From contig CM097886.1 in the NCBI GenBank assembly GCA_044892525.1, forward strand, positions 114,514,001-114,578,000: DNA of 64,000 nt, given 5' to 3'. This document shows, piece after piece, positions 16,893 through 52,786 of this stretch. The notes under the pieces are model-generated. The model did not search any database and was not told where the DNA came from. It was given only the letters and a program-made list of their open reading frames with translations. Origin of the DNA: Schmidtea polychroa. Its lineage: Eukaryota. The position numbers and the translations under genes were made by a program. Every line of letters begins with the position of its first letter. The first letter of the stretch is position 1.

Positions 16893-16959
16893 GATACATA
16901 CCAACATAAACCCGTTCTAACCACCATGATCTCAGTTAAGCAGAATATTGTGTTATGTT

Positions 16960-21190: not shown

Positions 21191-21751
21191 TCGTCTAATT
21201 TCTTCCCTTTTCCTTTCTAGGTTCCTTTTTAGTTCAATTTGTAGAAAATCTTGTTCGTTTCCTTGTTGGTGACTTTGTTGTTGCTGTTGTTGATTTCTTC
21301 CTTCTATCTCCCGGTATTTGCGAATCCACTTCTCCATCTCTTCACTGTCTCGTTGTTTTTCCTTTAATTGGTAGTTTAATTTGTTTATGGTCACTTGGCG
21401 TTCTTCCGCCTCGGTTTTCCAGTAGTCCTCAATTACCTCCTCTGCTTTAATACTTGCCCTTTCTTTCCATTATTCTCCCGCTATCTTTTCCCAGTTTTTT
21501 TCTCGCTTCCTTTGTTCATGAAGCCATTCGTTTTCTTCTTCTATATCTCTTTTTACTTCCCCCAACGTTTTACACTCTTTCTTTAACACCTTTATCATTC
21601 TTCAGTCTTCCAGGTATTTGTTTATTAATCTCCCATTCTCGCGCTTCTCTTCCCCTAACTCCTCTTTTAGCGTTTGTGTTTTTGTTGTTTCTGCTTCGAT
21701 TTCTCCTTCTTCTACGTCACTCGTGATTTCTATTATTTCCTCGATCTTCAT
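21190..21751 (-). pseudogene. Accessory coiled-coil ORF of copy 1 (internal stop, truncated by N2)
   Basis: MKIEEIIEIT... is an E/K/R-rich frame continuing through a stop at 21602 into the 21394 ORF. It is preceded by attatag|atATG. Confidence 0.6.
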
Positions 21752-21934
21752 ATCTATAATATGTACAATTAATGGTGCGCTATAATGCGACTTATACGTA
21801 TACATTTATATAAAGTTTGATAGTTTGGGTTAGAGTCCCTTAATTACTTTTAATTTACTCCTTATTTTTTTGTTTGGGATATAGGTCCCGATTTTATACA
21901 AAACATTTTTTGTCTTTTCGAACACAGCATTTAT

Positions 21935-22990
21935 TTATACGAATGTCTCCTCTTGCCCTACGTATCCCTCGTCGCTCTCTACCGACGACCGTAATTGGAT
22001 AGCGATAGGGTCGTATGGTACATAGTGTTGGGGGATTTGAGCCCTCAGCTCGTGAATTTCGTCTCTTAGAGCCCTTGAAATGTTTAGTTCCTCATCCAGT
22101 AAATAGGTGAGGTACCTTGTCTCTTCGTCTTTTACTTCTATTTGTCTGTCTAGGGCCTTGATTTTCTCGTTGCCCTTCCATTTTTCGATTTCTATTTCTA
22201 AATTTTTGATATTGTCACTGTACATTTTCCTTTCGACCTCCAATTTTTTGTTTTTTCCTGCTAGTACCATATTTCTCTGCTCCAGAGCTCCTTGATATCC
22301 ATTGATATCTCTTTCCATTTCTGCTACTTTATTTACTAGCTCCACAACTCTTCCAGACTGTTGGAGTATCATTTCCTCCATTTCCGCATTCTCGTGTTCT
22401 CTGATGTCGATTTTTATAGCCAAATGTCTTTCAAACTCCATGGCTTTTGTCTGCCAGGTTTGACTTCGAGCGGCAATTTTTCTTAATCGCTTTAGTTCCT
22501 CTTTTATGACTAAATTCTCTTCCCATTTACCTTGTTCGCTCTCGTATTGCAGTCTCATAGGCAAATCTTTCATTTCCTTTTTCATTTCTTTGTTTTGTCT
22601 TTTCCATTTTCTAGCTTCCGCTAATGTGTGGTTCATTTTCTTACCTTCTTTTTGTTTTTCTACTTCAAGTTTGGTGTTTTCGTCGGTGAGCCTCTTTCTT
22701 GCTTCTTGTATTAGCTGTTTTAGATAACGGCTGTGTGCTTCTTGGCGTGTATTTTCCAACGATGCCCATTTCGATGCTCTCTTGCATGCCTCAGCCTCCT
22801 CCCTCAAATTGTGTATCAGCCATCGATATTTACTATTCTCATCTTCCCTAGCTTCTTCGACGTGATTTCGGGTGAGGTTAATTAGTTGGAACATCACCTT
22901 GTTCCACTTGTCGCTATATTCTCTGGGAATTGGTGTTTTGGTTACATTAATTGGGGTCGTCGTTGTTCCGGTCATTTTTTCTTGTGTCAT
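21935..22990 (-). CDS. Accessory 351-aa long coiled-coil protein of copy 1
   Basis: Intact ORF, heptad-like E/K/R/L-rich, same purine-rich strand bias as the element. It is preceded by aatttag|aaATG and followed by AATAAA. Confidence 0.75.
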   Translation of the reverse strand: MTQEKMTGTTTTPINVTKTPIPREYSDKWNKVMFQLINLTRNHVEEAREDENSKYRWLIHNLREEAEACKRASKWASLENTRQEAHSRYLKQLIQEARKRLTDENTKLEVEKQKEGKKMNHTLAEARKWKRQNKEMKKEMKDLPMRLQYESEQGKWEENLVIKEELKRLRKIAARSQTWQTKAMEFERHLAIKIDIREHENAEMEEMILQQSGRVVELVNKVAEMERDINGYQGALEQRNMVLAGKNKKLEVERKMYSDNIKNLEIEIEKWKGNEKIKALDRQIEVKDEETRYLTYLLDEELNISRALRDEIHELRAQIPQHYVPYDPIAIQLRSSVESDEGYVGQEETFV

Positions 22991-23183
22991 TTCTAAATTA
23001 GAGATATTGATTAATTTTTATTTTGTTACGATTTTATTACTTAGTTACTGGTTTATCAGGAATTTTTCGCATTATTTTTGGGTTTTCGTGTTTAGGTTTT
23101 TACATACTAGTACCATGTATGATTTTATTGGTTATATATACCGATATATATATACATTTTATATACAATATTATCCACGCCGG

Positions 23184-24559
23184 CTACTCGGTTCTGCCTT
23201 TTCCCTCTCTTCTCACATTCATTTTTATATATATTGTGTCATTCCTGGCCATGACTTCCACCTTTTGTTGCAAGATGAACTTAGGCGCTCCCGTTGCTGC
23301 ACCTTCTTCTTCAAGTGGTCTTTGGTTGGCTAATTGGTTGCCCGTTGCCTTGAAACTTTGTTCGTGGATGCTTTGGTCATTCATTATTGCGATATCGATT
23401 TTCGCCTGAAATGGCCATTCTATTATTTCGTCGTGTTCCCCTTTACATACTAGGAAGAATACTGAGAAGTGTGTTCCCAATCCTATTCCATCTCCGTTGG
23501 GATATACCTTCATTTTCATTTTGTATCCGTTCTTCCAGGAGAGAAATGCGGGGCTGGTTATCCTAGTATCTTCTCCGATTTTTGCTTTTCGTATCTTTTC
23601 TTTCACTCCCGTAATTTTCCATATGTAGGGTGTGGTTGGAATTACTTCGTTTAGATTTATTTCGGTTACTTTTTGACGGAGCACCTTGGCTTTCCATTCG
23701 GTTTATTTGCTTTTTTATGTTTGCTCGAGCTTCCTCAAACGCTTCTCTTTCTTCTAGTAATTCCTTTACCAATGCTTTCAATGAGGTTGTTTCTATCCCC
23801 ATTTGTTGTACTTTCTCTTCGTTTTCTTGCAACGCAATTGACCACATTTCTGCGTGAGTTGATACGTTTTCGGTTAGGTGTTGTGGTAATTCCTCTCGAT
23901 GTAGTAGTTTCTGACAGCCCCATTTACCTAGTACGCATATCATTCTTTTCTTTTCACATTCTTTTAGGTGCTGGGCTATTTTTAGGGTTTCACCTTTGTT
24001 ACATCCATTCGGACATTCCCCGCAGAATTCCGCGCATATTTTTTTCCTCCTGTACGTTGTGGTGTTTGAGGGTTAGGTTTTTCCACGTATCTACTTCCCT
24101 GCAGTATTCGCATCTTTCTAACCTTTCTTCACATTGGCTTTGATGTTCTTTTTCTTCGCTAGCTCGTATTGTTTTATGGCACTTGCCGCACTGGCCGACT
24201 CTGTACATACATTCCCCCATATGTTGCTTTACCTTCCATATTGATCCTTTCCATTCGCTTGGGGTATTTTTACATCCCAGATTAGTATTTAGCATATCTT
24301 TTACTGCGGCCTTATCTTCATTTGTATCTTCTAAAGTTGATATCAGGGTCTCTTTACATTTTGGGCACCACTGTGGTCTGTTTTTTATCGTTTCTTTTAT
24401 ACATTCTTTGCATAATCTGCATCCGCATTGGGTTTGGTGGGGTTCTTTTAGCAACTTTTCACATATTCCACACATGACGTGTTTGTGTATTCTGATAGTT
24501 GTGGAATTTCTGACTAACTCGATGATCTCGTTAAATTCCTCTCTTCGTTGTCTATCCAT
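23184..24559 (-). pseudogene. Intronless TRAF homologue carried by the retroelement (RING, TRAF zinc fingers, coiled coil, MATH); disrupted
   Basis: RING CGICEKLLKEPHQTQCGCRLCKEC...CPKC; zinc fingers HMGECMYRVGQCGKC and HQSQCEERLERCEYC; MATH SPAFLSWKNGYKMKMKVYPNGDG...GTHFSVFF...GEHD...EWPF. Split by stops near 23999 and a frameshift near 23670. No introns are needed to join the pieces. Confidence 0.9.
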
Positions 24560-24643
24560 ATCTACAATTAGGTACATATAGTCTTTATCGCTACAGATTC
24601 GATATTTTATTTACAGTTATTTACATTGTAATTTAGGTTTTGT

Positions 24644-25003
24644 TTATGGTTCGGAAGAGTCGGCCTCCTGTCCGCCCTCCTCTCTACTCATTAACCATTC
24701 TGACCAGTCTTCCATTTCTGCCTGTTCTGCTTCCTCCACCATTCTTTCCAATTCGATTTCCTGTCTTCGGCTATATTGGGTTATCCTCTCTATCTCTCTT
24801 TGCATTTGTTCGATTTTTACCCTCTGGTCCTCGATTATTTTTAGATAACTAAATTCTTTGTTCAAACTGTCGATAAAGTTCCTTTGCATCGTCAGTCCTT
24901 GCTCTTGTAAATTAGATACTAATTGTGCTAATACTGAGCATTGTTGTTTCCACATGTCTTCGGTAGCTGTGAGGTGGTTTATTTCGTGGTTTCTTTGCTC
25001 CAT
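24644..25003 (-). CDS. Accessory 119-aa coiled-coil ORF
   Basis: Intact ORF, Q/E-rich amphipathic pattern, located in the accessory cluster. Confidence 0.55.
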   Translation of the reverse strand: MEQRNHEINHLTATEDMWKQQCSVLAQLVSNLQEQGLTMQRNFIDSLNKEFSYLKIIEDQRVKIEQMQREIERITQYSRRQEIELERMVEEAEQAEMEDWSEWLMSREEGGQEADSSEP

Positions 25004-25165
25004 TCTTAATTTATATGTACTTTCTCAATCCTTATCCAATTTTAATTTCATATTATTTACACCCATCGTTATATAATATTGATACCGCGCTTATATAAAG
25101 ATATAATACTGTTATATACATAAACTATACTTACTTTTTACATTTATATACAGTCATAACCCTTT

Positions 25166-25522
25166 CTATTTCTGTGGATTTGGAGGGCGCTGGGCATTCC
25201 AGGCCTCCACCCACTGTTCTTGTTTGATATTATTCGGTCGTTTTACCCGATGTCGAAAATTTCTGATTCGGGTCATTTCCAATTCTCCGCGATGTCGTCT
25301 ATCTTTGATTATTTTTATTGTTCCCCCCGTTATGATTAAAAGTGCCCCTGTTATTATTATCCCACTGATCCACATCATCTGTTTTATGCTTATAATTTCT
25401 GGTTTTTCTTTGTTTGTTATTGTTGATATTGTCTCCGTACTTTCCTCGTTTCCTCTTTTGTCTTTTCTTTTCATCATCTCACGTATCCTTGTTATCTCCT
25501 CGTCCATACCCTCCTTGGCCAT
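25166..25522 (-). CDS. Accessory 118-aa single-pass membrane protein
   Basis: Hydrophobic stretch MMWISGIIITGALLIITGGTI followed by basic KIIKDRRHR. Confidence 0.55.
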   Translation of the reverse strand: MAKEGMDEEITRIREMMKRKDKRGNEESTETISTITNKEKPEIISIKQMMWISGIIITGALLIITGGTIKIIKDRRHRGELEMTRIRNFRHRVKRPNNIKQEQWVEAWNAQRPPNPQK

Positions 25523-25951
25523 TTTTTAAATTTTTTCCATTTCTTCCGCTGACACGTAATTGTCCTGGTTTTTCTCATTGGTTCTCTTACGCTTTTCTTC
25601 CTCATCTTTTTCATCGTTAAATTTTCTTTTCTTCCCTCTTTTTCCCGGTTATCGTCGACATTCCCTTTTTGATTCGTTCCTCCAGATACAAACCGTGTAT
25701 TCCTTTGGGGGTTGTTGCTGTGTTACATATTGTAAACAGTCTTCACCCGGTCTTAATCTTGAAATACAGACTTTGTGTTCTTTTCTTGGTTGGAGTTGTG
25801 TTATCACTACCTCCCCTCCTTTTTCTAGGTGTACCTCTTTCCCTTTAACTGTTGTGTTCTCTTCCCGTTTCGCTGTCGGTATGCCTCCTGTATTCTTACT
25901 TCCGTTATTGGTTCCGTATCCTCGTTTATCAATACTTGTTTCTGATATGCT

Positions 25952-28900: not shown

Positions 28901-31900
28901 GTGGATTTCAATTATTTCTACTGATTTTTGGTATAACGCTTTCATCCTATCTCGTATCTCTCTTTGATAGGTTACATCCCTCGTTCTGAATTCATCCATT
29001 GGTACTATTCGGATTACTTGCTGATCGTCCCACATACCCATTTCACTCAACGAGGTGTCGTCCTCAGCTCGTAATATTATTTTGCCGTACATCATAACTA
29101 CATCGTCTATCATGCCATCGCTACTCTGGTCTTGTACTTTTTCCGTTATTTCTTGGTTTATTTTTGATACTAATTCGTCTACCGTACTCTGATTGCGCAT
29201 TTTTACTTGTCGTTTCTCCTCATTTGGTAACCATATGATTATTTCCAACTCCTGTGGTTGAGTCTCTTTTAACCTTCCATATTTGTGGATCAAATTTACT
29301 GTTCTCCAATCGCTCATTCTGAGCAATTCAGTATCTCGTAATCGACTCATTAGTTCGTGCATAGCTGAGGCTCGCCTAGTTATGAGTAAGTCCCAGTTAT
29401 CTTCAACTTGTTCTTGAATCTGTTTGATGAGCTTATCCAGGTTTCGTCTCAAAGTACATTGTTTTATTTGTTCTAACTTCAACTTGATGTTAAAATCGTA
29501 TTCTGCCTTGGCGTCTTTAGCCCAATCGTAGATATTGGCTAGTTGTTTTTCTTTATGCAGCTTTAATATTTGTGTTTCCCCTGGCCATATCTGCGCGTCT
29601 ACCAAGTGCATATCCGGTTTGATTTGCTCTCCTTGATATTGATATAAGTACTCTTTTTTCCTCGAACTACCTAAATGTTCCCTTATCCAATCGAAAAGTT
29701 CGTCAGTGACTGTGTTTTTAATCCATATTCTTTCGAGTCCTTTACTCGTTCCGATTTTTATTACATATTGCGTGGTATCGACTTGCTTCATTTTCTCCAT
29801 ATATTTTTTTATATTTGATTTTTCCTCGTTTGGTATTAAATCTTTCTCGTTCCTTTCCAGTTTCATCACTTTTTGTACGAATCGTCTGAATGGTATTGTA
29901 TCGATGAACTCCTGGTTTCTCACTACTACTGGGAGTATCTCCGTTACTTGTTTTATTGCCTCCTCTTTCTCTTTTCTCAATTTTAATCCAATATCCTCAT
30001 CTTCACTTTCGCTGGTTATCTCGCTTTCACTTTCGCTTTCTTCGTTCTTGGTTATTTCTCTTGGTGGTTCGCTGGCTTCATTTAGTTGTAGTATTTCTCC
30101 ACCCAAGTTGCTCACGTAGTCTTCGTCTTCGTCTGATGACGCTGTATCTTTTGTCCTTTTCATCATGTTGATTCGCAAATTTCTCATCCTAGGTACTCTC
30201 CTTAGTTTCTTATTTTCGAATATCGTTGTTTCTTCAGATTCCAGTTCTTGTAGTATTTTGTGGTTTAGATGACTGGTTTGTTCCTGGTCTTTTTTGCTAT
30301 CATCCTTTACCTCTGTTTTCGTTTTATCGTGTTCTTTTTCGATTTTATCTTTTATCTTTTTCCAGAATATCTTCTGAATTCTCTGGTTTCCTTTTAATAT
30401 CGGGGTTGGATCCTCAGTTCTGATTTCCGGTGTGGTTTCCTTTACTTTTTCCGGTTCAGCCATGGGTACTACCCTTGGGTTTCTCCCGTAATTGTAACAA
30501 TATTGGCTTTTCATGTCTTTCACTAACCTCATCATATTTATTCGTAATGGCTGTTCTTGTCGTTGTTGGTTGCGTTCTTGTTTTATTCTTTCTTCCTCGG
30601 CCTGCAATCTTCGCCAATCTTGTGCATGCTGATGTACTTCATAATTGTTAAGATTTTCCGTGCTCCTCATCATGCGTATGTTCTGAGTTTGCTGGGGCAC
30701 TTGTACTTGCCTTGGTCTCATCATTTGTTGCATCATATGTTTCATTTGTGAGATTTCTTGCATTACGTTCATCTGTTTCCCTTCACTGGGGTTACTTTGT
30801 CGCTGCGGGTTCGGTGCATAATTATTATTTCGCTGCAGGGGTCGTTGTTGTTGGCTCCTTTCTCGGCAATCTCTTGAGATGTGACCTGGCTGACCACAGT
30901 TGTAACATCCCCTTGTTTGGCATATAGTTTCCGTATGCCCTCGTCTTCCACATCTATTGCAGTTTGCGTTTCGGTAACAATCGCTATCCCAATGCCCTAG
31001 TTTACCGCATGTTCGGCATTGTTTGTTATCGTTCGTATTTCGTCGATTATTAAAATTGTTCCCGCTTTTCCGGTTATTACGATCGTTATTATTCCCATTT
31101 GTTCGTCCTTGTGGTGGTTTAAAAATTTGATGCGCTCCTGGTATAAATTGATTCATTTTTGGTTCTTGATTGTTGTTATCTCCGTTATCCGTTTTCGCTA
31201 TGGCTGTCGCTATCCTCCCATCGTCTTGCATCATATTCATTTGAGCTGGTAGGTGGAGCTCACATCGTGTGGCCCAATCTATGGCTTCTTCCTACGTTTT
31301 ACACATTTTACATCCAACTGAGGCTCTTACTTCTTCTCGGCGTAATCCCTCTATGAAATAGCCGATCAGATTTTCCTCTGGTAATTTTCCGTTCATTGCT
31401 TTTTTCGCTAATCTTCGTAACTCACTAGCATATAATGTTATGGATTCGTTTACTCTTTGCTTCCTGTTTGCCAGTTCACCTAACGCCTGGTTGATTGGCT
31501 TGCTAGCTCCGAAAGTTTTCTTTAGGAATGTTTTGATATCTTCCCACTTCTCTAATTTCGTATCTCTTTCTTTAGCTTCTAGGTATACTTCTAATGCGCT
31601 ATCGCATAAAAACAACGGCATCCTTTTACTGACTGCCTCAGGTGTCCATCCACACACCGTGATATAGACTTCAAAGTTGGTTATAAACGTTGCCAACTTG
31701 TTGGCATTTCCGTTGAACGGTTCGCCTCTAAACTTTTCTTTATACTCGTCGGTTTTTACGACATTCGTCATGATTGGTTCTCTGAATTCGCCTGTTTCTT
31801 TTAAATTTTCCAGTGATGTGGTTAGGCTGTTGGCGGATAGTGCCTCTGCTGATGATGCTAAGCTGTTGGTTATGTCCGATAGGCTATCTCGGCTTCTAGC

Positions 31901-32495
31901 TCGACTGGGTGTATATCCGGTTGTAGGGTTTTCTTGGTCGAATTTCGGTATGTTGTGGGTTCTTCTTGTTCCTTGTGATACTCCTCTAGAATGGTTTATA
32001 GATCGACTTCTTCTGAGTCGTTCTAATTCGTCTCCTGAAAATAATACGTCTCCTGGCTTACTCGAGGATCTGAGATTTGGTTTCTCCGTGATTCCTTCTT
32101 ACGCTTTCTATCGTCTCTTGTGGACTTCTCTGTGATTAGCGGCTGCTGGATTGGGTGAATTCGGTTCTGACTGTGTGTCCTTCGAAGAATATTCTATACG
32201 ACTCTGCAATTAATATCCCGAGGAGCTTTATAAATCCTTGGTTGATTGCCGTTAATACAACAAGACTGAATATATCGTGAATTCGTTCGAAGTTGGAGAT
32301 ATTGTTGTCGGTGTCGTCTTCCGTTTCTGGAGTCTTCCGGTTACTGTATTCTTCTGTGCGGGTTCTGAATTGATTTATTCCTGGTTGATTACCGATTTCT
32401 TCGAATTCCTTTTGTGCAGGTTCTGGATTGGCTTGGGTGACTGGATTGGTTTGGTATCTAAAATGATAAAATGATCTCGTGTTGCATCTGCTCAC
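25952..32495 (-). pseudogene. Copy 1 polyprotein: Gag, CCHC x3, Ubl x3, Bcl-2-like, N-terminal part of Env
   Basis: ORFs starting 31771, 31240, 27160 and 26614 are one frame broken only by point stops at 31292, 27194 and 26669 (sense codons in copy 2). Zinc knuckles at 30866-31018. Homology to copy 2 stops at ~26010 (after IDRAVG), where the rest of env and all of pol are deleted. The N-terminus probably starts near 32495 with a frameshift. Confidence 0.88.
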
Positions 32496-33759: not shown

Positions 33760-34245
33760 TCAATCGCCATAATAAACCATATGGGTCTCCTTTATCTCGT
33801 GTCTACATATAGTACATCGATTTAGATTGTTCACGCACTCTTCACAGTGACTGAGGTGTCCGCATGGCAAGAACAGTACTCGTATAGGACGAAGTTTACA
33901 AGATAGACAAGTTCGGATTACGGCGACCGTCTCTTGTATCTTTTGCTCGATGGCGTCTGATATGGTGTTTAACCGGTCTTTTATTCGCTGATATTTTAAA
34001 TTCAAGGCTGGATGGTTCAATCTTTCTTGGTACCACTGGTATATTATTTCGAGATTTATTTTTTCGTCTGGGCGATTTAAACCTATGGCCAGTAACATGT
34101 GGGTAGGTACAACTAGTACTTGTTCTATGGTTTGTAGTTGTATGCTCCTAATTCTCTCTCTTTTTTGCGTAAGGGTCTGTAGGGGATCGCTGTCTATATC
34201 GATGAAGTTGGTTAATCGTTGGATCTGTTCGGTGAATTCGGCCAT
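33760..34245 (-). CDS. IAP/MDM2-type C-terminal RING protein (161 aa), copy 1
   Basis: CLSCKLRPIRVLFLPCGHLSHCEECVNNLNRCTICRHEIKETHMVYYGD. Intact, with an orthologue at 52301-52786. Confidence 0.88.
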   Translation of the reverse strand: MAEFTEQIQRLTNFIDIDSDPLQTLTQKRERIRSIQLQTIEQVLVVPTHMLLAIGLNRPDEKINLEIIYQWYQERLNHPALNLKYQRIKDRLNTISDAIEQKIQETVAVIRTCLSCKLRPIRVLFLPCGHLSHCEECVNNLNRCTICRHEIKETHMVYYGD

Positions 34246-34536
34246 GTCTATTAGGAAAGAAAATATGTTATTAATATACTACCAAGTGATGGTGATTTTA
34301 TTAAAAATTTAAGTTGTTATTGGTTATTCAATTTCGCCTTCTTTTAGATTTACTTTATTTGTTTTTAGTTTTATTATTATCTAAACCCTTATTTTTATTT
34401 ACCCCATTTATGCAATAATTCGATAGATTCTCATCGATTCGCATTCGTCAATCAATCAAACTCAGTACATCTCGGTGAATTCCGCACCAATCACTAGAAA
34501 TTCAATTGTTAGGCCTTTCCATTTATGCGTAGATAT

Positions 34537-34554: not shown

Positions 34555-35029
34555 AAAATTATGCTGGGGTACCACTCGATTGAATCTGTTACTTCTTTTC
34601 GCTAAGAGATGATTGTCCACCTCGTATGTTATCCGTTTCGCCCGTTCAACTCGCAGTGGGACCCCACATAACTTGTCCTCCAACATAGTGCCCGTGAATT
34701 GCTCCACGTTGGTACTGCACTATGCAGGCGAGACGCCAGCAAGCAGGTGAGCTTCTGCCTTAAAACTACTCCTTGCTGAGGCCTCGACTTTTCACTTACG
34801 ACTGCCGATAGAAGAGCTTACGTCCGTTCTCAGCACACAACCGCCTAGCGAAATTTCGTTGAGCACAGATTGGCATTTGTTTACTGGATCTCTAAAGTTT
34901 TTAGCTCGACGTCCTTAATCATAATCAGACTAATCTTGAAAGGGAAAGAAAACAAAATAAACAGTAAGATTTATTGATCACCATATTATAACACAGAACT
35001 TAACCATGCACATTTCAATGTTTTTAATA

Positions 35030-35483
35030 GGCAGGGGAGATATCACAACAAAGGTAGATGGAGTCTTTGGACGTCATTATGAACGCTCACCGTGGCCTCC
35101 TACTTCTCCCATTCCGTATCGGCGAGTAACTCATCCAAATCAGAGAACTCGGAGGCGTTCTCCTCCCAGGTTACTCCGGTGGCTGAAATAACTCGTGCTG
35201 GGGGTCCGGTAGTTAGGTCTACGGTCGCGTGAGAATCGTTAATGCTAGTTGGATTTGGCAGGGGAGATATCACAACAAAGGTAGATGGAGTCTTTGGACG
35301 TCATTATGAACGCTCACCGTGGCCTCCTACTTCTCCCATTCCGTATCGGCGAGTAACTCGTCCAAATCAAAGAACTCGGAGGCGTTCTCCTCCCAGGTTA
35401 CTCCGGTTGCTGAAATAACTCGTGCTGGGGGTCCGGTAGTTAGGTCTACGGTCGCGTGAGAATCGTTAATGCTAGTTGGATTT
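35030..35483. repeat. 227-bp tandem duplication inside the 5' LTR
   Basis: 35030-35256 is repeated at 35257-35483. The 3' LTR has a single copy. It duplicates the 3' end of the LTR ORF. Confidence 0.93.
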
Positions 35484-36076
35484 TCCGTTGAAGAGACGTT
35501 CGGCTTTGTAGATGCACGCTCACGCTGTCTCTTTTTGCGTTCAGCACGTGACAGTTGCCGACGCTTAGGCTTTGAGGAGCTGCTGATGACGAGAGGCAGG
35601 GCGGAGGTAGAAACGATAGATGGAGTCGTTTTGCTGTTGCCGGTAAAGATCATGTCGGCTGGCTTGGGCGAGAGCTGAGTCTCTATGCACCCTCTGCAAG
35701 GCTTTCTAGACGGTGACGACGACTTTGACGAGGTGTCGTGGTGCCTTGGGAAGAGCTGATCGGCTTCGCCTATAGGAATTTGGACAATTTGCCGGGTGGC
35801 GGCTGCCTGGATATAGACTTTGTGCAGCGCCTCAGACTGCTCCTTGATTAGACTTCTCTGGGCACGGCTCTCAGAGATTAGAGCGTCCCGGCAATGCTCA
35901 CTACGATGGAGCTTCTTCTGGGTCTCTTTCATCTGAGCGGGACTGAACCACGTCCCCTCTAGCTCATCGATCTTTCTTTTGTATTTCCCAATCTGGGTTT
36001 GTAAGTCCTTGATGATGGCGTTTTTGTCCGAGCAAGAAAAACAAGGACGTAACGCAGGCTTGGCAGTTGGTATCAT
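35327..36076 (-). CDS. LTR-encoded ~250-aa protein (CxxC, coiled coil, basic NLS-like segment, acidic tail)
   Basis: Intact ORF; ATG at 36076 follows the acceptor tttgcctttatag. The N-terminal ~85 aa differ from copy 2 at only about 7 residues despite many third-position changes. Confidence 0.82.
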   Translation of the reverse strand: MIPTAKPALRPCFSCSDKNAIIKDLQTQIGKYKRKIDELEGTWFSPAQMKETQKKLHRSEHCRDALISESRAQRSLIKEQSEALHKVYIQAAATRQIVQIPIGEADQLFPRHHDTSSKSSSPSRKPCRGCIETQLSPKPADMIFTGNSKTTPSIVSTSALPLVISSSSKPKRRQLSRAERKKRQRERASTKPNVSSTENPTSINDSHATVDLTTGPPARVISATGVTWEENASEFFDLDELLADTEWEK

Positions 36077-38112
36077 GATAACTATAAAGGCAAATGTGAG
36101 ATGTGGAACATACAAGATTCAATTTTAAAATATGGACTCGATTAGCTGGCTATTCGCGGGTATTCACCGAACACCAAGAAAAAACTTATTTTAACATCCA
36201 AATCTGTTACTTAGATTCTTACAGCAAAATTCAACTTAAACATATATTGTCGATTTGACGAATGCGAAAAAAAAGGATGGTGAAATTTCCCATGTTGGTG
36301 AAACGATTTTAATTCGCAGCTCTCCCTTTGATTTATTCAATTAAGTAGTTACGCAAGTAAGTTCATTGGAGATTGATATTCAATTACTACCCTGGGCTCG
36401 TATTCACCATTATCCATTTCAAAATTCCTATGTCGTTATTTAAAGAATTTGTTTATTTCCATTCAAACACTCGGTGTTATCGTTTACAATTTGCAGTGAT
36501 TAGTTATTATGCGTCACGTGCAAGGATCGCACACTCTATTTACCATGAGTATGTACAGCGGCGACGATTATCCTTATCACTTAGTTCACTACGCACGATC
36601 GTCGCTTGACCCGAACGGAGATTGATAGTAGATAATCGATCCTGCGAATTCTAATATCTGTTGTTATCATTGGTTGCTCACACTACTTAGCCTGTCATGA
36701 TATGAAAATCTACCGGTCTAACATCTGCGAATCGACGGCTTACGAGATTCACTAGCCAACATACTTATCTACTAGCATTCGTCGGGGTGAGAATTCAAAT
36801 GCATACGTCCTGTGTCAGAACAGTTGTGTGTTAATTATGCAATCTCCCATTCATATTCGGTACAGATGTCACCAACCATGAGTGGATATCGTTCAACAGG
36901 AGTTTGTGCACTAGCTCGGGTGACGTAGAAAGCTTTGGATATTATCTCACTGTCCGCAAATTCACGCTCGTCTACAATGTTGGAATTAATTGCTGTAATT
37001 CGAAAATTCCTTTATGTTGTGATGCTTCAAAATAAAAGAAAATCAAATGATATCCTCGAGCCGTGTTCCCGGGAAGATATTCCGAATGCGATGCAGAATG
37101 GACACTTATTCAGATAGTAGGAATTTATTTCCTAACTGTATAAAATAAAATGTTAAAGTAACTGTAGTCTTCCGTTTTAATCCATTTTCGTATTATGTCA
37201 CTTATCTGAATGCCAAAAAACATAAATTCTCGACTCTGGCTTATTAGCGAAATTTGTTCATGAAATTTAATGCTGGAGTGTCGTAGATGAGTCTACTCTA
37301 AGTGTGGTAGTGAAGATCAAGATTCGGATTTTCAGATAAGTGGGACTTTCGAATGATGAGATGTGACGTTGTGAAATGATGAGAAGTGTAAAATTTGCAT
37401 TTTCCCCAATCACTGTGAAGCATATACATGACTCCCCAAAATTTCGGAATCTGTTACTGAAATCAATAAGATATCCTTCTATGAATTTTATGTCACCTTC
37501 AGCGATTGGACCCGTGAAGAAGCCTCCACATTTCGGCCCAATCTAGCTGCGTGATTGAAATACTCCATGTCCACCGGCTGAGCTCCCGAAGGCACCTCAC
37601 GCCATGACATGGAGTATCTCAACTCCACGTGTCTCATTAAATTTAATTCAATCAAATAATACTTTATGAAATAAAAACATCCAAATTGTTCGATAATAAT
37701 AAATTTATTATAAAATAAAAATGTACTTTAACCAAATAAATCGTTTACCTTATTAAATCATTTATGGGACCAAACGAAGAGAAAATTAAAACTAATTTAA
37801 GAAAACTTTTAATCATTCATTAAATAGGTGCAATTACCATTAACTTCAAAGAGATGTAAAAAAATCATAATAAATAGAATCCTGCTTACGCTTGAGTTAG
37901 GCTGAATCGCAATAATGCTCGTGGTCAAAATGAATCGGCTGTCTCTGGTTCTTTAAATCCTTCTGGTTATATCTCAGTTACTAGTTGAATTGAATTATCG
38001 AGTCGCTCGTGAGTTTAGGTTCGCTAATATTTCTGATGCTGGAATTAGTCCTGGTAAGCCGTAGTCGTTTTCCTATGAAAATTTTGATTAAACAGTAGTT
38101 GGTAGAATTGGC

Positions 38113-38199
38113 ACTTACCTATGAAAATTTTGATTAAACAGTAATTTTAATGATTTTGGTGCCCGTTTATATAGTAAGTTCTTATTTGTGCGGACCAAT
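38113..38199 (-). promoter_or_regulatory. LTR promoter (inverted CCAAT, TATA) and first splice donor
   Basis: ATTGG at 38199-38195, TATATAAA at 38173-38166 and AG|GTAAGT at 38118, with the same order and similar spacing as in copy 2. Confidence 0.7.
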
Positions 38200-38519
38200 C
38201 AAAATTGAGTACCGCTTATTTTATTAAATTAATTTGCTTTTTTCCTATTTCTTTGGATATTTTACTTATTTTTCTATTTTTATTATATCTTTTATTTATT
38301 TCTTAAATTCCTTAATATTTATTGCATTTTACACTATTTCTCGTCATTCAATTGTCTTATTTAATTTTTTCTTATATTTTTTGTTTTAATTCTTATTTCC
38401 TAATTATTGTTTTTCTTATATCTTATTCTATTTTATTCTTATTTTGGTTTATTTTATTTTTATTTTTATTTAGTTATCCCTAACCTAATTTCCGAGGTGT
38501 TTTCCGATTCAGCCCAACA

Positions 38520-45545: not shown

Positions 45546-46961
45546 CTAACAACTGACTTTACACCTAAATCTCAGCTTATCATTTACAAGGATGACCCCC
45601 AAAAACGTGAAGCACCAAATTTCCGAATTCCTCTCGGTGGTCGGCCTAACCCAAGCCGCGCTGTTGGGACAGAAATCGTATTTGATCGTCCGGCTAGTAC
45701 ATATGTGCCCATTGGGTTGATCGATTGCCCCAATTATCACACTGGATTTGAACGGCCAGCTCAATTGGCTGTCATGCTCTCCACGCAGTAAATGGAAATA
45801 AACATTTACCGAGTTGCCACAAAACTTCACACTCAAACACATTTTATACCCGAATTTGTGGGAATAAAACGGCCGACTGTATATCCATGAATTTATTGGT
45901 TGCTGACTTAGTTTATCAATTTTCCAATCAAATTCTCCCAAATTTGTCTCATTCCCGAATTCCGATTCGTCATCGATATCCAAATGTGTTATTGGAGCTG
46001 CATTGCATAAATTATCGATCTGAAAATGATCACACATCCAATATCGATTACTATTCGATCACTAATCAATTTTACCTCGTTGACTCTGATCGGGCAACCT
46101 TGTGTTGAATCACCGATTTTAGTAATTGAATGGGATGATTTATTGATCAATTCCTTAATCTGTACAGAAGCATTTAGATATGTAAATATTTGACTAAAAA
46201 AATTACATCAACTATTGATTGGGAAATTTTTTCAATTTCAATTTTCAATGATAAATTTTCATTTGTTAATGAGTCTATTTTCTGATTTAATTTTTCTATT
46301 TCCGATTTATTTACTGTTTCATTTCTGCTTGTTTCATTCATTCTCATCTGTTTTAATAGTAAATTATAGTAAATGTTGAAAAATAACTAATTACACAAGA
46401 AAATCGATTCTCTGTTTCCAATCCAATCATTTTATTCTTCGTCGATTCTATTTCGTTGCGTAAATTATTGATAAAATCTAATAACAGTTTATTGTGCTGA
46501 TAGCTATCCACATAAAGATGGTCATTAATTTCATTGCTTAACACTTCAAATTTATTACATCCGAATTCAAAATATGGACAACTGATGGGATTTTTATTAC
46601 AAGTTCTAATGTGGCTTTCTATTGCACTCAATTCATCTTGGAAATCACAGTTTCTTCTTGGACATTTTACAATTATTTCTGTTATCCTTACATTTACGGC
46701 ATGGTCGACAATGATATCCTTTTCGAAATTTATCAATTTAACTTGGCAATATTTTGATTTTACGGGACAAAATTTGCTTTCACCTCCCAAATAAGATTGA
46801 ATGCATTCTGAACAATACCTACATCCACATTGCGCTTGACTCGCTTTTATCATTATTTTTTTACAAATATTGCATAATAAATCATTGGCAATTTCAGATT
46901 TAAAAACAAATTCGATTTCTTTCATTATTTTCCAAATATCTTCAAAAATTTCATTGGTCAT
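45546..46961 (-). CDS. Host TRAF-family gene, 4 exons, intact (~421 aa)
   Basis: Exons 46961-46395, 46347-46207, 46159-46076 and 46019-45546, with phase-0 GT-AG introns of 47, 47 and 56 nt. RING (CNIC...QAQCGCRYCSEC), zinc finger, coiled coil and MATH (SRPFYSHKFGYKMCL...GEHD..LSWPF). Confidence 0.9.
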
Positions 46962-47619
46962 TTATAATTAAAAATATAACTATTTCTGAGCTATAATATT
47001 TATCATAAAAACCATATTTAATACAAAATAAAAATAATTTATCAATGAATAATAATGAAACATTACTTTATAAAAAACTTCAAAGGAATATTTAAAATTT
47101 AGATAATTCATTAAAACATGTCAAATAAATTTGTTAATTGCGATAAATACAATTATTTATAAATAAAGATCTTGGAAAATTTTGATTTAAACAAAAATAG
47201 ATAATTTATATTAAAATTTTTGAAAATATGATAGCTGATTTAACAAAGAGTATGACGGTGCAAAAATTTATATAAATTCGTTTCACTTGTATTAGGATTC
47301 CCATCCGTTACAACATTAACATCTTGTTCCAAATCACTAAATAATTCCATAAATTTTATTCAATAAATTTTAGACTCAAAAACTTGTCTTTCTTATTTAT
47401 GTTATTTAAACAAATTTTCATTTTCCTTTTAAAATATATTTCGATAAAAATATTTTTTTAAGAATGCTAAATTTCAGTCTTCTTTTTAAATTTAACAAAA
47501 TTTCAAATTAAATCTTTAAGAATCTATCAACTATTTTATATCCTCTCATTAAGAAATTTTTTAGGTTTTTCCACGTTTTTTAAAATCTTTTTACCATTTT
47601 AGTTAATTAAGATATATCG

Positions 47620-47969
47620 TCTGCCATGCAATTTCTGGATTATATGGTCCCTCATTACTGTCCTGGCTTTTTTTGCGTGTTTCTAATTTTACTAACACCT
47701 TTTCTCCTATATTGAATTTCCTCTTCTTGTTCTTTCTTTACCAGTTTTTCCTTTGACCCGTACCATTTTTCCCTGCAAATCTTTTTTCCAAATATTATCT
47801 CTGTAGGCTTTTTCTTGTCGTTTTTTGTTTGGTTACATTTAATGTAAATTTAACTTCTGGTAGTATCTCTGCCCAAAATTTCTTTCATCTGTCTCATAAA
47901 GTAGCATTGATCAGCTCTCGTTTTGTCCTGAATTGCCTTTCTATCTGTCCATTTGTTAGGTGATGGTAT
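47620..47969 (-). pseudogene. Older, unrelated Gypsy integrase remnant interrupted by copy 2
   Basis: Manual translation YHHLTNGQIERQFRT...WAEILPEVKFTLN...KTTRKS matches the integrase YHPxxNGxxER region. It is cut exactly at the LTR start. Confidence 0.7.
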
Positions 47970-48300
47970 TGTTGGGCTGAATCGAAGGGTAGCTGGGAAA
48001 TTAGGTCGAATTTAACTAAAGTAAAAATAAGAAATAAAATAAATAGATTGACGAATAAAATAGAATAGAACATAAGAAAAACAATAATTAGAAATAAGAA
48101 TTAAAACAAAAAAATATATAAAAATAAGAAAAATTAAAATAGGACAATAGAATGACAGAAAATAACGCAAAATATAATAAATAATAAGGAAATTAAGGAA
48201 AATAAATAAAAACATAATTTTAATAAAGAAAATAAGAAGAAATAACTCTAAAACAAGGAAAATAAATTAAATTAATAAAATTAAGCGGTACTCAATTCTG

Positions 48301-48388
48301 ATTGGTCCGCGCAAACAAAAAATTAATATATAAGCAGGCATTAAAATCATAATAATTACAGTTAATCTAACCACCTCAATAGGTAAGT
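48301..48388 (+). promoter_or_regulatory. LTR promoter and splice donor
   Basis: ATTGG at 48301-48305, TATATAA at 48327-48333 and AG|GTAAGT at 48383. Confidence 0.7.
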
Positions 48389-50662
48389 AAAGTTTAAAAT
48401 AATCACAGTTAATCTAACCACCTCAATAGATCCATTCTACGACGAAACCGCAATTAAACAATCAATCCACAGCAACTCACGAGGACTATTCCGGAATCCA
48501 AGAAATTTCAGCTGAATCTAGATAATTTCGAACATTTATTACTTCGACACAGTACCCCTTTTCGACTCAGCCTATACCTCTATTAAACACTCGGTAAGGA
48601 TCTTTTGATTTCATAATTTGAATTTTAAAGTAATAGTTATGCATATGATTTAATTATAATTTTAATTTAAAGAACTTGTTTTCTTTTCGTTTGATTTCGA
48701 ATACTTGGTGTAATTTAACGATTTAGTATTTAACAATAAATGATTTGCTATGAATGATTGATTTCTAGGAATTATTGACTTTTATGAACTGTTTTAATGA
48801 GTTATTATTTAATGCCATTCAAATTTTCGAGAAACGTGGCGTTGATATACTCTAGTGTCATGGTGTGAGGTGCCTTCGGGAGCTCCACCGGTGGGCCTAG
48901 GGTATTTCAATCACGCAGCTGATTCGGGCCGTAATGTGGGGGCTTCCTCACGGGTCCGTCGCTGAAGGTGCGACTAAATCCTATAGGAAAATGTTGCCAG
49001 AAAATTGGTAGTCGTATAGCGATGGAAAATAGAGATGTAGGAAGAAACGTTCAGAGAGTTTTTATGTATTCGCGCAGTGATTGAGGGTGTCACACTATCG
49101 TCTCAAGATATCGTTTCTACTAAGCCCAAATTTCCTCTATCGCTCTAAAGCTCTATGTAGGTTGCTCATCGAGAGTCGTTCAAATGCTATAGGTGACATA
49201 TCTTCGATGCTCGTATGTTTCACTCGAAATTTATACCTACTATGTTTTATGGCCTTCCGTGTTATTATTTTCCTCGTCTACGTGTTCTCTCAAAGATGTA
49301 GCTGCAGGGGATTACAGAAAATAAGTAGTCTCGGATGAGCGTTAGAATTCCATGAACAAGTTGTCTCGCATAAAATTTTGAATTACGTAAAACGGGTTAC
49401 TTCAACTATTTTTGAATTGTATAAAATGATTTACTTCAATTGATTTTAGAATTATATAAAGGGATTAACTTCCACAAATTTTTCTAATTACATAAACCGG
49501 TTAGTGCCAAATAATCTCAAGAGTAAAACGAAATCAAATCGAGTCAAAAAATATATTTTTTTTTTACAAACCAATCTAACATGATAATCCTTACCTAGTA
49601 AATATAAATTACCCGTGTTTCATGGAGTTGATAATCCGGCGAGGATAGGTAGGAAATCTCCAAAATATCGGGAACGGATCAATAAACCGCATTTGAGGAG
49701 TTGAGAAGTTCCCCCTGGGGGGCAAATTATATCCAACTCTTGCGATACCGAGAATCATAATTTTTCCAGCATTTCCGTGAGAATTAGTATGACATCATCA
49801 TGAGCAAGGAAATGTGAGCATCTGTGCAGTGGGTTGATCGAGATAGTAGCCAGAGAACATGCCAGCATGTAAACAGTTGAGGGCACCAGTTAGTCATTAG
49901 GAGTGGAATTAAGTATGAGAAATAAAAACTTGCATACGTCACCCGTTTTCAGACACACTACAGTAGCTAATCACGGTGTGTAGATTCACACCGACTTGTA
50001 CTCATAACAAACCAGACCGGACGTGTCAGCTGGAATTTTTGGGTTATCAAATTAAATCACTCGCAGTCATTAGATTCCCACTGGTCGGAACTAATAGCCA
50101 ACTGTCAGACTGATTTTGTCTACTTAGTAGGATTAATTTAGTTATTATCTCATGTTGAATAATTTGTCGCCTATCATAAATAAATAATTAAAAATTTTTT
50201 TTTAATGTCTTCCCGTTCATCATAAATGAACTAATTAAGAATAATTTATGGATTTCTATTCACCCTAAATAATTAATCTAAAATTAATCGACCTACGTAC
50301 AGGATACATTCATCGAAACGATTTGTTAGGAAAAGTCGGCAATGTAATTCAACTCTCTTCAAACGTTAATTACTAACTTCAAGCAATTTAGATAACCGTA
50401 GTTTCCTCGACCTAGAATTCCTCTCACCAGTAGTAATACCTCTCCTTACTTGTGCAAAATCGTGCTAGACTGATTTATTTTCTTATAATTAATGACCCAA
50501 AGGGAACGAGGACCCATAGCGCAGTTGAATTTCTTTGGCTGATACACCCATTCTTGTCTATGAAACCAACTATGATCAGTAAAATATAAATGTGACCAGA
50601 CGACGACCTTCTAATTGATTTGATTTGTTGTTCATTTCCATCTTTTCTTGCAGTCACCCAAG

Positions 50663-51406
50663 ATGTTACCCAATTCCAAGACCATTCTCAGACCTTGTTT
50701 CTCTTGTTCAGACAAGAATTCAATCATCAAGGATCTGCAGGCCCAAATCGGAAAGTACAAGAGAAAAATAGACGAGTTAGAGGGGACATGGTTTAGTCCT
50801 ACCCAGATGAAAGAGGCTCAGAAGAAGCTGCACCGCAGCGAGCACTGTCGAGATGCGCTAATTTCCGAAAGTCGGGCGCAGAGAAGCCTAATAAAGGAGC
50901 AGTCGGAGGCGCTGCACAAGTTATACGTCCAAGCAGCAACCACTAGGAGAATCGCGAAGATCCCAATTAATGAAGCCAGTAATCTTTTTCCAGCGCACCA
51001 CGAGATCTCGGGCGGGCCTTCATCTCCACTTGGGAAGTCCTGCCATGGGTGCGTGGAGACCGAGCTCTCTCCCAGTGGTCCAGACGTTGTATTCACCGGA
51101 ACTAATAAAGTGCAGCCAAACACCGCATCGTCCTCAATCGTGCAAACCCCAACAGCTTCAAAACCTAAACGTCGGCAACTGTCGCGCGCCGAACGAAAAC
51201 GAAAGCAACGAGAGCGGGCTTCCATCAAACGGATTCTACCATCAACCGTCACCCCAGTCGACGGCAACAGCAATCCAATAGTAGTCGATCTAACGACCGG
51301 AATCTCAGGGCGAGTCATCTCCGCCGCCGGGGTAACATGGGAAGAAAACGCCGCCGAATTCTTTGATTTAAACGAGTTACTCGCCGACTCGGAGTGGGAA
51401 AAATGA
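50663..51406 (+). CDS. LTR-encoded 247-aa protein, copy 2
   Basis: Intact ORF after the acceptor tcttttcttgcag (50653), with AATAAA at 51543-51548. Homologous to 35327-36076. Confidence 0.82.
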   Translation: MLPNSKTILRPCFSCSDKNSIIKDLQAQIGKYKRKIDELEGTWFSPTQMKEAQKKLHRSEHCRDALISESRAQRSLIKEQSEALHKLYVQAATTRRIAKIPINEASNLFPAHHEISGGPSSPLGKSCHGCVETELSPSGPDVVFTGTNKVQPNTASSSIVQTPTASKPKRRQLSRAERKRKQRERASIKRILPSTVTPVDGNSNPIVVDLTTGISGRVISAAGVTWEENAAEFFDLNELLADSEWEK

Positions 51407-51974
51407 GAATTGCTCCGTAAACTGGCCTCATCTTCTAGAGATACCTGGACATCTTCTGACATCATTGTTTACCCTTGTGTTTTCCCTATTCTTAGGAATT
51501 TTGGTATATAAGTGTTCAATGTACTTGTATAATAATTCTGACAATAAACCATTCTCGTCTATATATGTGTTTTTGTTTATCTTAAAATAGTCGATCTGAA
51601 ATTGGTGAATAACATTGAGAGTCGTAGAAAATGAGGAGCATTAGTCAGTTGGCAACCCCAGCTAGGAACCTTGCGATGGGGTGATGGAATGATTAGACGT
51701 AAGTCCTTCTATCGGCAGTCAGGGTTGGGAAGTCGACGCCTCAGTAAGGAGTAGTCCGAAGGAGCTGGCTCACCTGCTTACTGGCGTCTCGCCGGCATAG
51801 CACAGTTCCAACGTGAAGCAATTCACGGGTGCTATGTTGGAATGTAGGTTATGTGCGGGTCCTGCTCGGCGATGACAAAACGAAGGACGAGCGAAATCGA
51901 TGTGGGCATTCATCCTCTAGACTGAAAGCTGCACTAAAAGGGGTCATCCGAGTAGCTACCCGCAACATAATTTT

Positions 51975-51992
51975 TGGGGGCTCAGCCGGGAT
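51975..51992 (+). promoter_or_regulatory. Primer binding site, tRNA-Pro type
   Basis: TGGGGGCTCAGCCGGGAT. Confidence 0.88.
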
Positions 51993-52300
51993 TTAGATTG
52001 AAATTTCCATTGACTAGTGCGAACTTGACTGGGATTTATTATTGAAATTTTGTCGAATAGTGTGAATTCACCGGGATTAGTGATTTTAATTGACTGGCGA
52101 ATGCAAATTGACTAATGCTTATCGAATCTTATTATAAAATCACGATTAGAAAATAATAAAATTAAAGATATAAATAAAGTAACTTTAATAATGGAGAAAT
52201 AAGATAAAAGTAAAATAAAGTATAACGATTTAAAAGGAAAATGTTTGATGAAACAACCACTAATTAGTTATGTATGACTAAAACATTTTTTTTAATAGAC

Positions 52301-52786
52301 ATGACGGAATTCGTGGACCAGATACAACAACTAATCAACTTCATAAACATCGAGAATGACTCCCTTAAAACGCTGACACAAAAGAGAGAAAGAATTAACA
52401 TCATACTACTCCAAGCAATCGGGCAAACCCCAGTCGTCCCCAACCACATGTTATTAGCCGCAGGACTAAGTCACCCAGATGGGAAGATAAACCCTGAAAC
52501 CGTGTATCAATGGTATCAAGAGAGATTGAACCACCCAGCATTAAATCTTGATTATCAACGTATAAAAGATCCATTAAGTACCATATCAGATACAATCGAG
52601 CGAAAAATACAAGAAAAACTGACCCTACTACGAACTTGTCTTGCTTGTAAACTTCGTCCTATTCGCGTACTGTTCTTGCCGTGTGGACACCTCAGTCACT
52701 GCGAAGAATGTGTGAACAACTTAAAACGATGCACGATATGTAAGAATGAGATAAAAGAAACTCATATGGTTTATTATGGTGAATGA
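52301..52786 (+). CDS. IAP/MDM2-type RING protein, copy 2
   Basis: Intact; CLACKLRPIRVLFLPCGHLSHCEEC...CTIC...HMVYYGE. Preceded by ttttaatag|acATG. Confidence 0.88.
   Translation: MTEFVDQIQQLINFINIENDSLKTLTQKRERINIILLQAIGQTPVVPNHMLLAAGLSHPDGKINPETVYQWYQERLNHPALNLDYQRIKDPLSTISDTIERKIQEKLTLLRTCLACKLRPIRVLFLPCGHLSHCEECVNNLKRCTICKNEIKETHMVYYGE

Follow-up and report, generated by a model that had tools for sequence, protein, structure and literature searches.

A putative common LTR leader and conserved acceptor-like sites in a Burro-like giant Ty3/gypsy element of Schmidtea polychroa

Two copies of a Burro-like element at the locus

The 64,000-nucleotide stretch of S. polychroa DNA analysed here (the window) contains a Burro-like giant Ty3/gypsy element in two copies, which bear all five AG-NN-ATG sites that a previous sequence-only reading had proposed as splice acceptors. 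Each site lies at the place and on the strand reported, with the AG ending at 34248 and 52298 (RING), 24562 (TRAF), 22993 (first coiled coil, CC1) and 21754 (second coiled coil, CC2), in each case separated from the ATG by two bases. As the two RING sites are homologous, they represent four independent sites rather than five.

A Pfam scan of 26 ORFs recovered the order protease (PR), reverse transcriptase (RT), RNase H (RH), integrase (IN), together with a Gag carrying CCHC knuckles. Homology to a mononegavirus-like fusion glycoprotein (PF24664) was found between Gag and protease at 56940-61907, where the frame is broken, and MATH/TRAF cargo (PF21355/PF22486) is encoded by a separate ORF 3' of pol. 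Burro and GYPSM1 are giant gypsy-like LTR elements of planarians (PMC6431247). As described there, they share with our element a length of ~30 kb, multi-kb LTRs, CCHC knuckles in Gag, a mononegavirus-like fusion protein between Gag and protease, the PR-RT-RH-IN order, and MATH/TRAF and RING cargo, a likeness judged by description. In contrast to Burro/GYPSM1, the TRAF and coiled-coil ORFs lie 3' of pol here, and the BIR, ankyrin and BCL2 motifs of ORF1 of Burro1/GYPSM1 proper had no Pfam match at E 0.01 among the 26 ORFs. In its account of these elements the same review is silent on splicing of Burro RNA, and in the literature examined we found no description of how the many Burro ORFs are expressed.

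The features that frame the two copies are as follows.

47970..51967, + strand: 4.0-kb 5' LTR of copy 2, whose 3' partner, 99.7% identical, is outside the window
34561..38519, - strand: 5' LTR of copy 1
51975..51991, + strand: primer-binding-site-like motif, directly after the copy 2 LTR

The last motif is a putative primer-binding site, named for a presumed tRNA match. Rfam returned nothing real on the LTR. Copy 2 measures 28.55 kb and has an internal deletion; by eye, none of the deletion junctions of copy 2 or of three other loci (L001, L009 and L029) falls on a splice site. In all counts given below the copies are related, and the counts are not independent.

The LTR contains a TATA box, a predicted two-exon leader and two donors

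48327..48333, + strand: TATA box, 16 nt downstream of a conserved reverse-CCAAT box
48358..48382, + strand: predicted leader exon 1 of 25 nt, with an exact second copy at 48405-48429
48383..48429, + strand: mini-intron of copy 2, beginning at donor 1
38118-38073, - strand: mini-intron of copy 1, with donor 1 at 38118
48430..48593, + strand: predicted leader exon 2, free of ATG
48594 (copy 2, + strand) and 37889 (copy 1, - strand): donor 2, long-range, 210-230 nt beyond donor 1

The sequence-only reading had named a single strong donor ~50 nt past the TATA box as the source of a common leader. A donor is indeed present at 48383/38118, but it is not single, as the LTR holds a second donor and a third lies at 25134. 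Nor is it the long-range donor: donor 1 serves a mini-intron of 46-54 nt, and the long-range donor is donor 2. The mini-intron (GTAA..YAG) was found in 33/36 LTRs and is exactly absent from 3; in 3 elements it has been precisely lost from both LTRs. In 10/10 leader types the end of exon 1 is identical to the end of the intron (23/23 positions), while the types share only 12/23 with each other. Across 11 types, exon 2 contains 0 ATG versus 7.3 expected from dinucleotide shuffles.

Transcription would start ~30 nt past the TATA box, and the mini-intron would then be removed. Strong-stop DNA copied from a 5' end that has been spliced would land on the exon-1 copy at the tail of the intron in the 3' LTR, and the mini-intron has likely survived because of this pairing. 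The retention of introns within an LTR is unusual for an element with an RNA stage.

A spliced DNA copy joins the leader to the LTR gene

48594..50653, + strand: intron 2 of copy 2, bounded by donor 2 and the LTR-gene acceptor
48800..48975, + strand: conserved hairpin within intron 2 (z -2.7)
50663..51406, + strand: LTR gene of copy 2, 247 aa, with no Pfam family above cut-off
36083-36082, - strand: LTR-gene acceptor of copy 1
36076-35327, - strand: LTR gene of copy 1

An AG located 3-9 nt before the ATG of the LTR gene had been claimed for all copies. The AG was confirmed at 15/15 loci; the range was not, as the YAG lies 5-11 nt upstream overall and 5, 5 and 9 nt upstream in the window. Using a pattern for spliced copies of this gene we obtained two matches, one real (L062) and one due to chance (L061); a second pattern recovered the L062 locus again, and a backwards control pattern gave 0 matches. 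L062 is a 1874-nt genomic LTR that retains U3, TATA and U5 and lacks exactly intron 2. Its exon 2 is joined to the LTR-gene exon at a GT and an AG that are present in 4/5 of the closest relatives checked, where intron 2 spans 1.2-1.9 kb; the fifth has lost the AG. A LINE-processed copy was rejected, since U3 and U5 are kept and there is no poly(A), as was a microhomology deletion, since the junction fits the exact GT and AG and not shared bases. L062 is a DNA copy of a spliced RNA, directly supporting cis-splicing of the leader to the LTR gene, at a single locus and for this gene only.

The intron 2 hairpin, like a basic stretch found in the protein of the LTR gene, is suggestive, and only that, of a Rev/RRE-type export switch.

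Acceptors precede RING and gag

52297..52786, + strand: RING acceptor AG and RING ORF of copy 2
33760..34249, - strand: RING acceptor AG (34249-34248) and RING ORF of copy 1
31771..32459, - strand: gag acceptor AG (32459-32458) and a 686-nt ATG-free exon reaching the gag ATG

A YAG lies 2 nt upstream of the RING ATG in 17/17 copies, and the AG is invariant while 36/38 preceding bases vary. The gag acceptor is conserved in 15/15 copies and is followed in 13/15 by 602-687 nt without an ATG, compared with 8-15 ATG in the same length upstream; the dinucleotide control is weak per copy (1.8-3.6 expected) because TG is rare in the ATG-free exons. A conserved acceptor followed by an ATG-free stretch suggests that Gag-Pol, too, is probably made from a spliced mRNA. 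Taken together, this points indirectly to likely use of the leader at RING and gag. Pattern searches for DNA copies with the leader spliced to RING, gag, CC1 or CC2 returned none, which is weak counter-evidence since such copies are expected to be missing if the primer site is spliced out.

The 3' cassette carries conserved AGs

25129..25134, - strand: donor 3 (GTAAGT), 34 nt past the start of the pol stop codon
24644..25003, - strand: ORF A, 119 aa, with a weak acceptor
23184..24563, - strand: TRAF acceptor AG (24563-24562) and RING-MATH TRAF gene, broken into three here and 462 aa in other copies
21935..22994, - strand: CC1 acceptor AG (22994-22993) and ORF, 351 aa
21190..21755, - strand: CC2 acceptor AG (21755-21754) and its ORF, interrupted by stop codons, with an inserted element cutting it

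Conservation of the AGs among copies, the lack of which would have refuted the original claim, extends to the cassette: the AG is kept in 38/38 copies at TRAF and in 37/37 at both CC1 and CC2. ORF E, which could not be seen in the sequence-only reading, has a YAG 4 nt upstream of an ATG in 33/34. The two-base spacing did not hold as a signature and was rejected, as the TRAF AG lies 1 nt from the ATG in 34/38 copies and 2 nt in 4. For CC2, 138 genomic matches have the G of the AG and 0 lack it, with 86 TAG and 14 CAG among the 100 matches listed. Because most of the 40 nt ahead of CC2 do not vary (28/38), the AG there is inconspicuous, and an ATG in the same frame is found 54 nt upstream of CC2. 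Ranked among 364-443 AGs, the acceptors scored 1-2 (CC2), 2-7 (TRAF), 3-19 (CC1) and 11-16 (ORF E), using a matrix trained on four 5' acceptors that in part scores the T-richness of intergenic DNA; TRAF, CC1 and CC2 have no long pyrimidine tracts. ATGs are found within 150 nt upstream of the TRAF, CC1, CC2 and gag acceptors, and splicing would remove them.

The least probable explanation that we weighed is that the 3' AGs belong to the context of the start codon or arise by chance in a strand rich in purines, the ORFs being reached by leaky scanning or reinitiation. A YAG lies 0-9 nt before 93/342 sense ATGs (27%), and a G at -3 suits a purine start context. Against this background 6/8 ORFs comply in most copies (binomial by hand ~0.004), and under the stricter rule a TAG ends 2 nt before 8/342 sense ATGs in copy 1, four of them the sites in question, and 11/385 in copy 2. 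The figure from local shuffles is 0.9-2.2% per site, and the AG-NN-ATG sites exceed chance. Moreover, at TRAF the AG persists while its spacing from the ATG and the bases that follow are free to vary, variation at -3 is limited to T versus C, and the cassette lies >10 kb behind other ORFs. The TRAF, CC1 and CC2 AGs behave like acceptors; since no junction was found, their partner donor, and with it leader use in the 3' cassette, is what we infer.

It is also possible, albeit unlikely, that the element comprises two units, with the LTR leader serving the LTR gene, RING and gag-pol and an internal promoter near the pol stop serving the cassette, through a short exon of its own that ends at donor 3 and is joined to the acceptors of TRAF, CC1, CC2 and ORF E, or through small unspliced promoters before ORF A and CC2. 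Donor 3 occupies the same position in 37/38 copies, belongs to a set of just three GTAAGT across 17 kb of copy 1, and is much nearer than donor 2 to the 3' acceptors. The pol-ORF A and TRAF-CC1 gaps hold clusters of TATA-like words, the ORF A acceptor is poor (rank 36-115), and internal promoters are described for foamy viruses (PMC12789967) and Oikopleura Tor3b/4b (PMC4402516). However, by eye there is a conserved ATG 23 nt ahead of donor 3 whose frame would match neither CC1 nor CC2; the reverse-CCAAT box was not seen near donor 3; and unspliced CC1 starts would bear several upstream ATGs. No internal match to the LTR core-promoter matrix was found, a matrix built from homologues that other promoter types may escape.

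Donor 3 and the TATA-like motifs keep alive both this reading and a quite improbable one, in which the cassette forms an operon whose cistrons are separated by spliced-leader trans-splicing, with these AGs as acceptors. The flatworm spliced leader ends in AUG; where the spacing is 1, 2 or 4 nt, this AUG would not be in frame. In the cassette of L010, 1/23 A[AT]TAAA words has a U-rich stretch downstream, judged from sequence only, leaving upstream cistrons without clear 3' ends; trans-splicing thus becomes the weaker of the two options originally offered. It would also cut the genome RNA, and an upstream cis donor out-competes the spliced leader (PMC4558846). On the other hand, the gaps of 55-192 nt between cassette ORFs fit the range of flatworm operons (300 nt or less), and planarians trans-splice, with cis and trans acceptors alike (PMC12582326). 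The short same-strand gaps and the AG just 5' of the start codon resemble the operons described there, from which our element differs in that a cis leader is present and used and there is no poly(A) site per cistron.

No RNA record was listed for 47970-53000. When putative-RNA contigs from four runs were placed on L010, no GT..AG ends were found among the 15 of 26 joints listed, with runs mostly <95% alike. Some of these contigs crossed donor 3 and the acceptors of ORF A and CC2 without being spliced, while one (n=1; RNA origin guessed) starts on the G of the CC1 AG, three letters ahead of the ATG. These placements do not count as evidence for any of the readings.

A proposed expression programme and its relation to known systems

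We favour, with a probability of roughly 0.6, a model in which an ATG-free two-exon LTR leader is spliced to the LTR gene, and likely the same leader onto RING, gag-pol, TRAF, CC1, CC2 and ORF E. The idea of common-leader mRNAs is hence borne out directly for the LTR gene by L062 and indirectly for RING and gag; for TRAF and the coiled coils the partner donor is inferred only. Donor 2 would pick one acceptor to give a one-gene mRNA, the first AUG past the junction would start the protein, and the 3' ends of the mRNAs would fall at a small number of U-rich poly(A) sites, located behind the LTR gene, RING and ORF E. The RNA that keeps the primer site would be the packaged genome; mRNAs for RING and later genes would be without it and therefore not copied.

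We put at somewhat less than even odds a broader scheme for all eight genes, including Gag-Pol, in which one LTR leader is joined to alternative acceptors with few shared poly(A) sites. All translated mRNAs but the first would be free of the primer site, apart from the packaged genome; reverse transcription would renew leader intron 1; and this late-unit style would have evolved independently of complex retroviruses.

The adenovirus major late unit combines a multi-exon common leader, alternative acceptors and few shared poly(A) sites; as it belongs to an unrelated DNA virus, the likeness is one of design only. An LTR promoter, a 5' donor and an acceptor before each of several accessory ORFs are shared with complex retroviruses, among them HIV-1, HTLV-1 and MMTV, in whose account retroviral Gag is always made from the first ORF of unspliced RNA (PMC12789967). 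In contrast, gag is the third ORF here and probably depends on splicing, the pol domains are in Ty3/gypsy order, the LTR itself encloses the two leader donors together with one complete intron and gene, several poly(A) sites are predicted internally, and the env-like region is within ORF1, with no separate env after pol. Foamy viruses and Oikopleura Tor likewise carry accessory or env genes at the 3' end, and in Tor3a env is spliced from the LTR (PMC12789967, PMC4402516). They differ in having a mapped internal promoter, and our element has five 3' ORFs and two 5' ORFs.

The donor, acceptor and poly(A) map predicts isoform-specific expression of the TRAF, RING and coiled-coil cargo and yields exact primer positions. 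It also predicts that Gag-Pol works in trans, on a genome RNA distinct from its own mRNA, and this would account for the abundance of deleted copies. Burro elements are abundant in planarian genomes and carry apoptosis and ubiquitin regulators, and one has been reported to support regeneration (cited in PMC13465017).

A giant Ty3/gypsy element with two copies in the window

The 781-Mb host genome harbours a giant Ty3/gypsy element, two copies of which lie within the window. Pfam matches in the element comprise Gag, CCHC, a mononegavirus-like fusion protein, protease, RT, RNase H, integrase, RING and TRAF/MATH, a domain content with which the description of the Burro elements of planarians (PMC6431247) agrees; on this likeness the host is presumed to be a planarian. 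Intact copies are ordered as LTR gene, primer site, RING, gag-env-pol and a 3' cassette of ORF A, TRAF, two coiled-coil ORFs (CC1 and CC2) and ORF E. The primer site is presumably a tRNA match. This Burro-like element is a real feature, with a splicing programme in the style of complex viruses that is demonstrated at its first gene, probable at RING and gag and predicted along the 3' cassette. The literature search returned no report of Burro RNA splicing or of an LTR intron maintained by an exon-end/intron-end repeat; Grohme 2018, Rossi 2014 and Lee 2026 (Burro1 in regeneration), with their supplements, may already describe transcripts of Burro.

Features of the two copies and their surroundings in the window
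38519-34561, minus strand: 5' LTR of copy 1, which has an internal deletion and a 3' end broken by insertions
47970-51967, plus strand: 5' LTR of copy 2, whose 3' LTR lies outside the window (identity 99.7%)
10057-21190: non-LTR elements that entered the 3' end of copy 1 head-on and cut CC2, with RT at 14757-16892
45546-46961, minus strand: host-type TRAF gene between both elements, its MATH part 31% identical to the element's TRAF
53340-53649: tandem array of a 74-nt unit, variable in copy number, in the RING-gag acceptor interval (also at L044, another genomic locus, 6850-7330)
53978: point in copy 2 where the gag acceptor and gag start are missing, although its LTRs are nearly identical

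Since copy 2 combines nearly identical LTRs with the loss of these gag sequences, it probably moved in trans. In copy 1, a 28-nt array replaces the 74-nt array, and another insertion splits the 3' LTR. A deleted element elsewhere (L029, ~480-600), without RING, gag or pol, has its primer site joined almost directly to donor 3, a splice donor after the pol stop, and the accessory cassette.

Acceptor-like AGs precede the element ORFs

The sequence-only reading had described AG-NN-ATG contexts before five ORFs, all of which we found as written. The AG was kept across a 38-row alignment of the 3' cassette, comprising 36 of 37 other genomic matches, copy 2 and the window copy (L022, a duplicate locus, was left out). 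TRAF has an upstream AG in 38/38 copies, as TAG or CAG, at a spacing of 1 nt in 34 and 2 nt in 4, and both CC1 and CC2 have one in 37/37 aligned copies. The triplet preceding ORF A is AAG in 24 copies and TAG in 14, and ORF E has a YAG 4 nt ahead of its second in-frame ATG in 33/34 aligned copies. Among 20 fetched 5' loci, RING was found in 17, always with a YAG 2 nt before the ATG and a pyrimidine tract upstream, and the LTR gene in 15, always with a YAG 5-11 nt before the start. Judged by these counts, an acceptor-like AG is a general feature of the element's ORFs, whereas the two-base spacing is not. Across all sense ATGs, a TAG ending 2 bases upstream occurs at 8/342 in copy 1 and 11/385 in copy 2, and a YAG within 9 nt at 93/342 in copy 1.

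The LTR carries a predicted two-exon leader with a mini-intron

A reverse-CCAAT box and a TATA box were present in 36/36 LTR promoters found, with the end of exon 1 71-73 nt downstream. Exon 1 is followed by a mini-intron (GTAA..YAG) of 46-54 nt in 33/36 LTRs. It is precisely absent from the other three, and as the 5' LTRs of these three elements lack it too, the loss was inherited via copying. Lineages exactly without the mini-intron (L017/L046, L028/L047, L031/L048; L068, L070, L072, L077) indicate that the element is able to spread without it. Exon 1 and the mini-intron end in identical stretches of 23 nt in 10/10 leader types; compared with each other, leader types share a mean of 12/23 nt in the exon-1 end. 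The simplest mechanism we infer for this repeat is strong-stop pairing, in which strong-stop DNA templated by the spliced 5' end would anneal to the repeat of exon 1 that closes the still unspliced intron in the 3' LTR, restoring the mini-intron and overwriting its tail every cycle.

Donor 2 (GTAAG/GTGAG; 48594 and 37889 in the window) lies 140-190 nt past the mini-intron, its count of 36/36 being partly by construction, as the search demanded the motif. Exon 2 contains 0 ATG across 11 types versus 7.3 expected from dinucleotide shuffles, and ATGs reappear downstream of donor 2 (1-8 per equal length). In design alone, the proposed splicing resembles that of the adenovirus major late unit.

The most conserved LTR region (48800-48975, plus strand; 37661-37494, minus strand) contains two putative hairpins inside intron 2, which runs from donor 2 to the LTR-gene acceptor. 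They precede a gene whose product has a basic stretch, KRRQ..RKKRQR, a possible Rev/RRE-like layout.

A genomic copy of a spliced leader

Because intron 2 lies entirely within the LTR, RNA spliced there retains the primer site and is copyable. A gapped pattern search found such a locus, L062, a 1874-nt LTR with U3, TATA, exon 1, exon 2, LTR gene and U5. In four of five relatives checked, exon 2 runs up to GTAAG and TATAG directly precedes the LTR-gene exon, the two lying 1.2-1.9 kb apart; the fifth has an altered AG, and in a separate check the donor was visible in 11/16 relatives. L062 joins the two exons at exactly these points, and none of 40 other matches to its junction region spanned the junction. 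This single locus shows that splicing has joined donor 2 and the acceptor of the LTR gene at least once; the common-leader splicing proposed earlier is directly supported for the first gene.

Gag and RING are likely served by the same leader

A T-rich acceptor is conserved 602-687 nt upstream of the gag ATG in 15/15 gag-bearing copies. The exon from acceptor to gag is ATG-free in 13/15 copies versus 8-15 ATG immediately upstream, with 7.6-9.1 expected from base shuffles and 1.8-3.6 from dinucleotide shuffles; in the 5' part of copy 1, the longest ATG-free run (716 nt) begins 29 nt ahead of the acceptor AG. Given in-frame stops in the copies read, this exon is likely untranslated. Because two ORFs and ~6 kb precede gag, production of Gag-Pol probably depends on a spliced mRNA that lacks the primer site, unlike in retroviruses (PMC12789967). 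Leader splicing to gag is likely, as it is to RING.

The donor for the 3' cassette

For the cassette, the LTR leader appears the most likely donor, a ranking kept tentative by the evidence below. An acceptor matrix trained solely on the four 5' acceptors, scoring 364-443 AGs in 10 copies, placed CC2 at rank 1 in 9 copies and rank 2 in the window copy, TRAF at 2-7, CC1 at 3-19, ORF E at 11-16 and ORF A at 36-115, a ranking that owes part to the T-richness of the gaps. At CC2 starts genome-wide, the G of the AG is present in 138 and missing in 0. Against the LTR leader stand the weak ORF A acceptor, conservation throughout the region upstream of CC2, and the finding of no leader junctions to RING, gag, CC1 or CC2 in DNA. 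An internal promoter used with donor 3 ranks next, as this perfect donor lies 34 nt past the pol stop in 37/38 copies and TATA-like words cluster in two gaps. Resolution of an operon by trans-splicing ranks last: the AUG that ends the flatworm spliced leader would be out of frame at spacings of 1, 2 and 4 nt. In the cassette of L010, another element copy, only 1/23 poly(A)-like hexamers has a U-rich stretch downstream, and it follows ORF E. This pattern disfavours an operon and fits 3'-coterminal mRNAs. Other hexamers with such a stretch are located within intron 2 and downstream of both the LTR gene and RING.

Donor 3 (25134-25129, minus strand; L010 566-611) has a conserved AAG 46-57 nt downstream that scores high in the acceptor matrix. 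Together they may delimit a second mini-intron, located in the 3' UTR of gag-pol and so near the stop that decay would be avoided; alternatively, donor 3 may be a U1 site protecting against early poly(A).

TGTA(A/C/T)ATA, which we take to match a Pumilio element, occurs 11 times in five gaps before ORFs and 0 times in ORFs.

Examples of gaps between the 3' ORFs
L010 536-695
L010 1056-1140
L010 2530-2721
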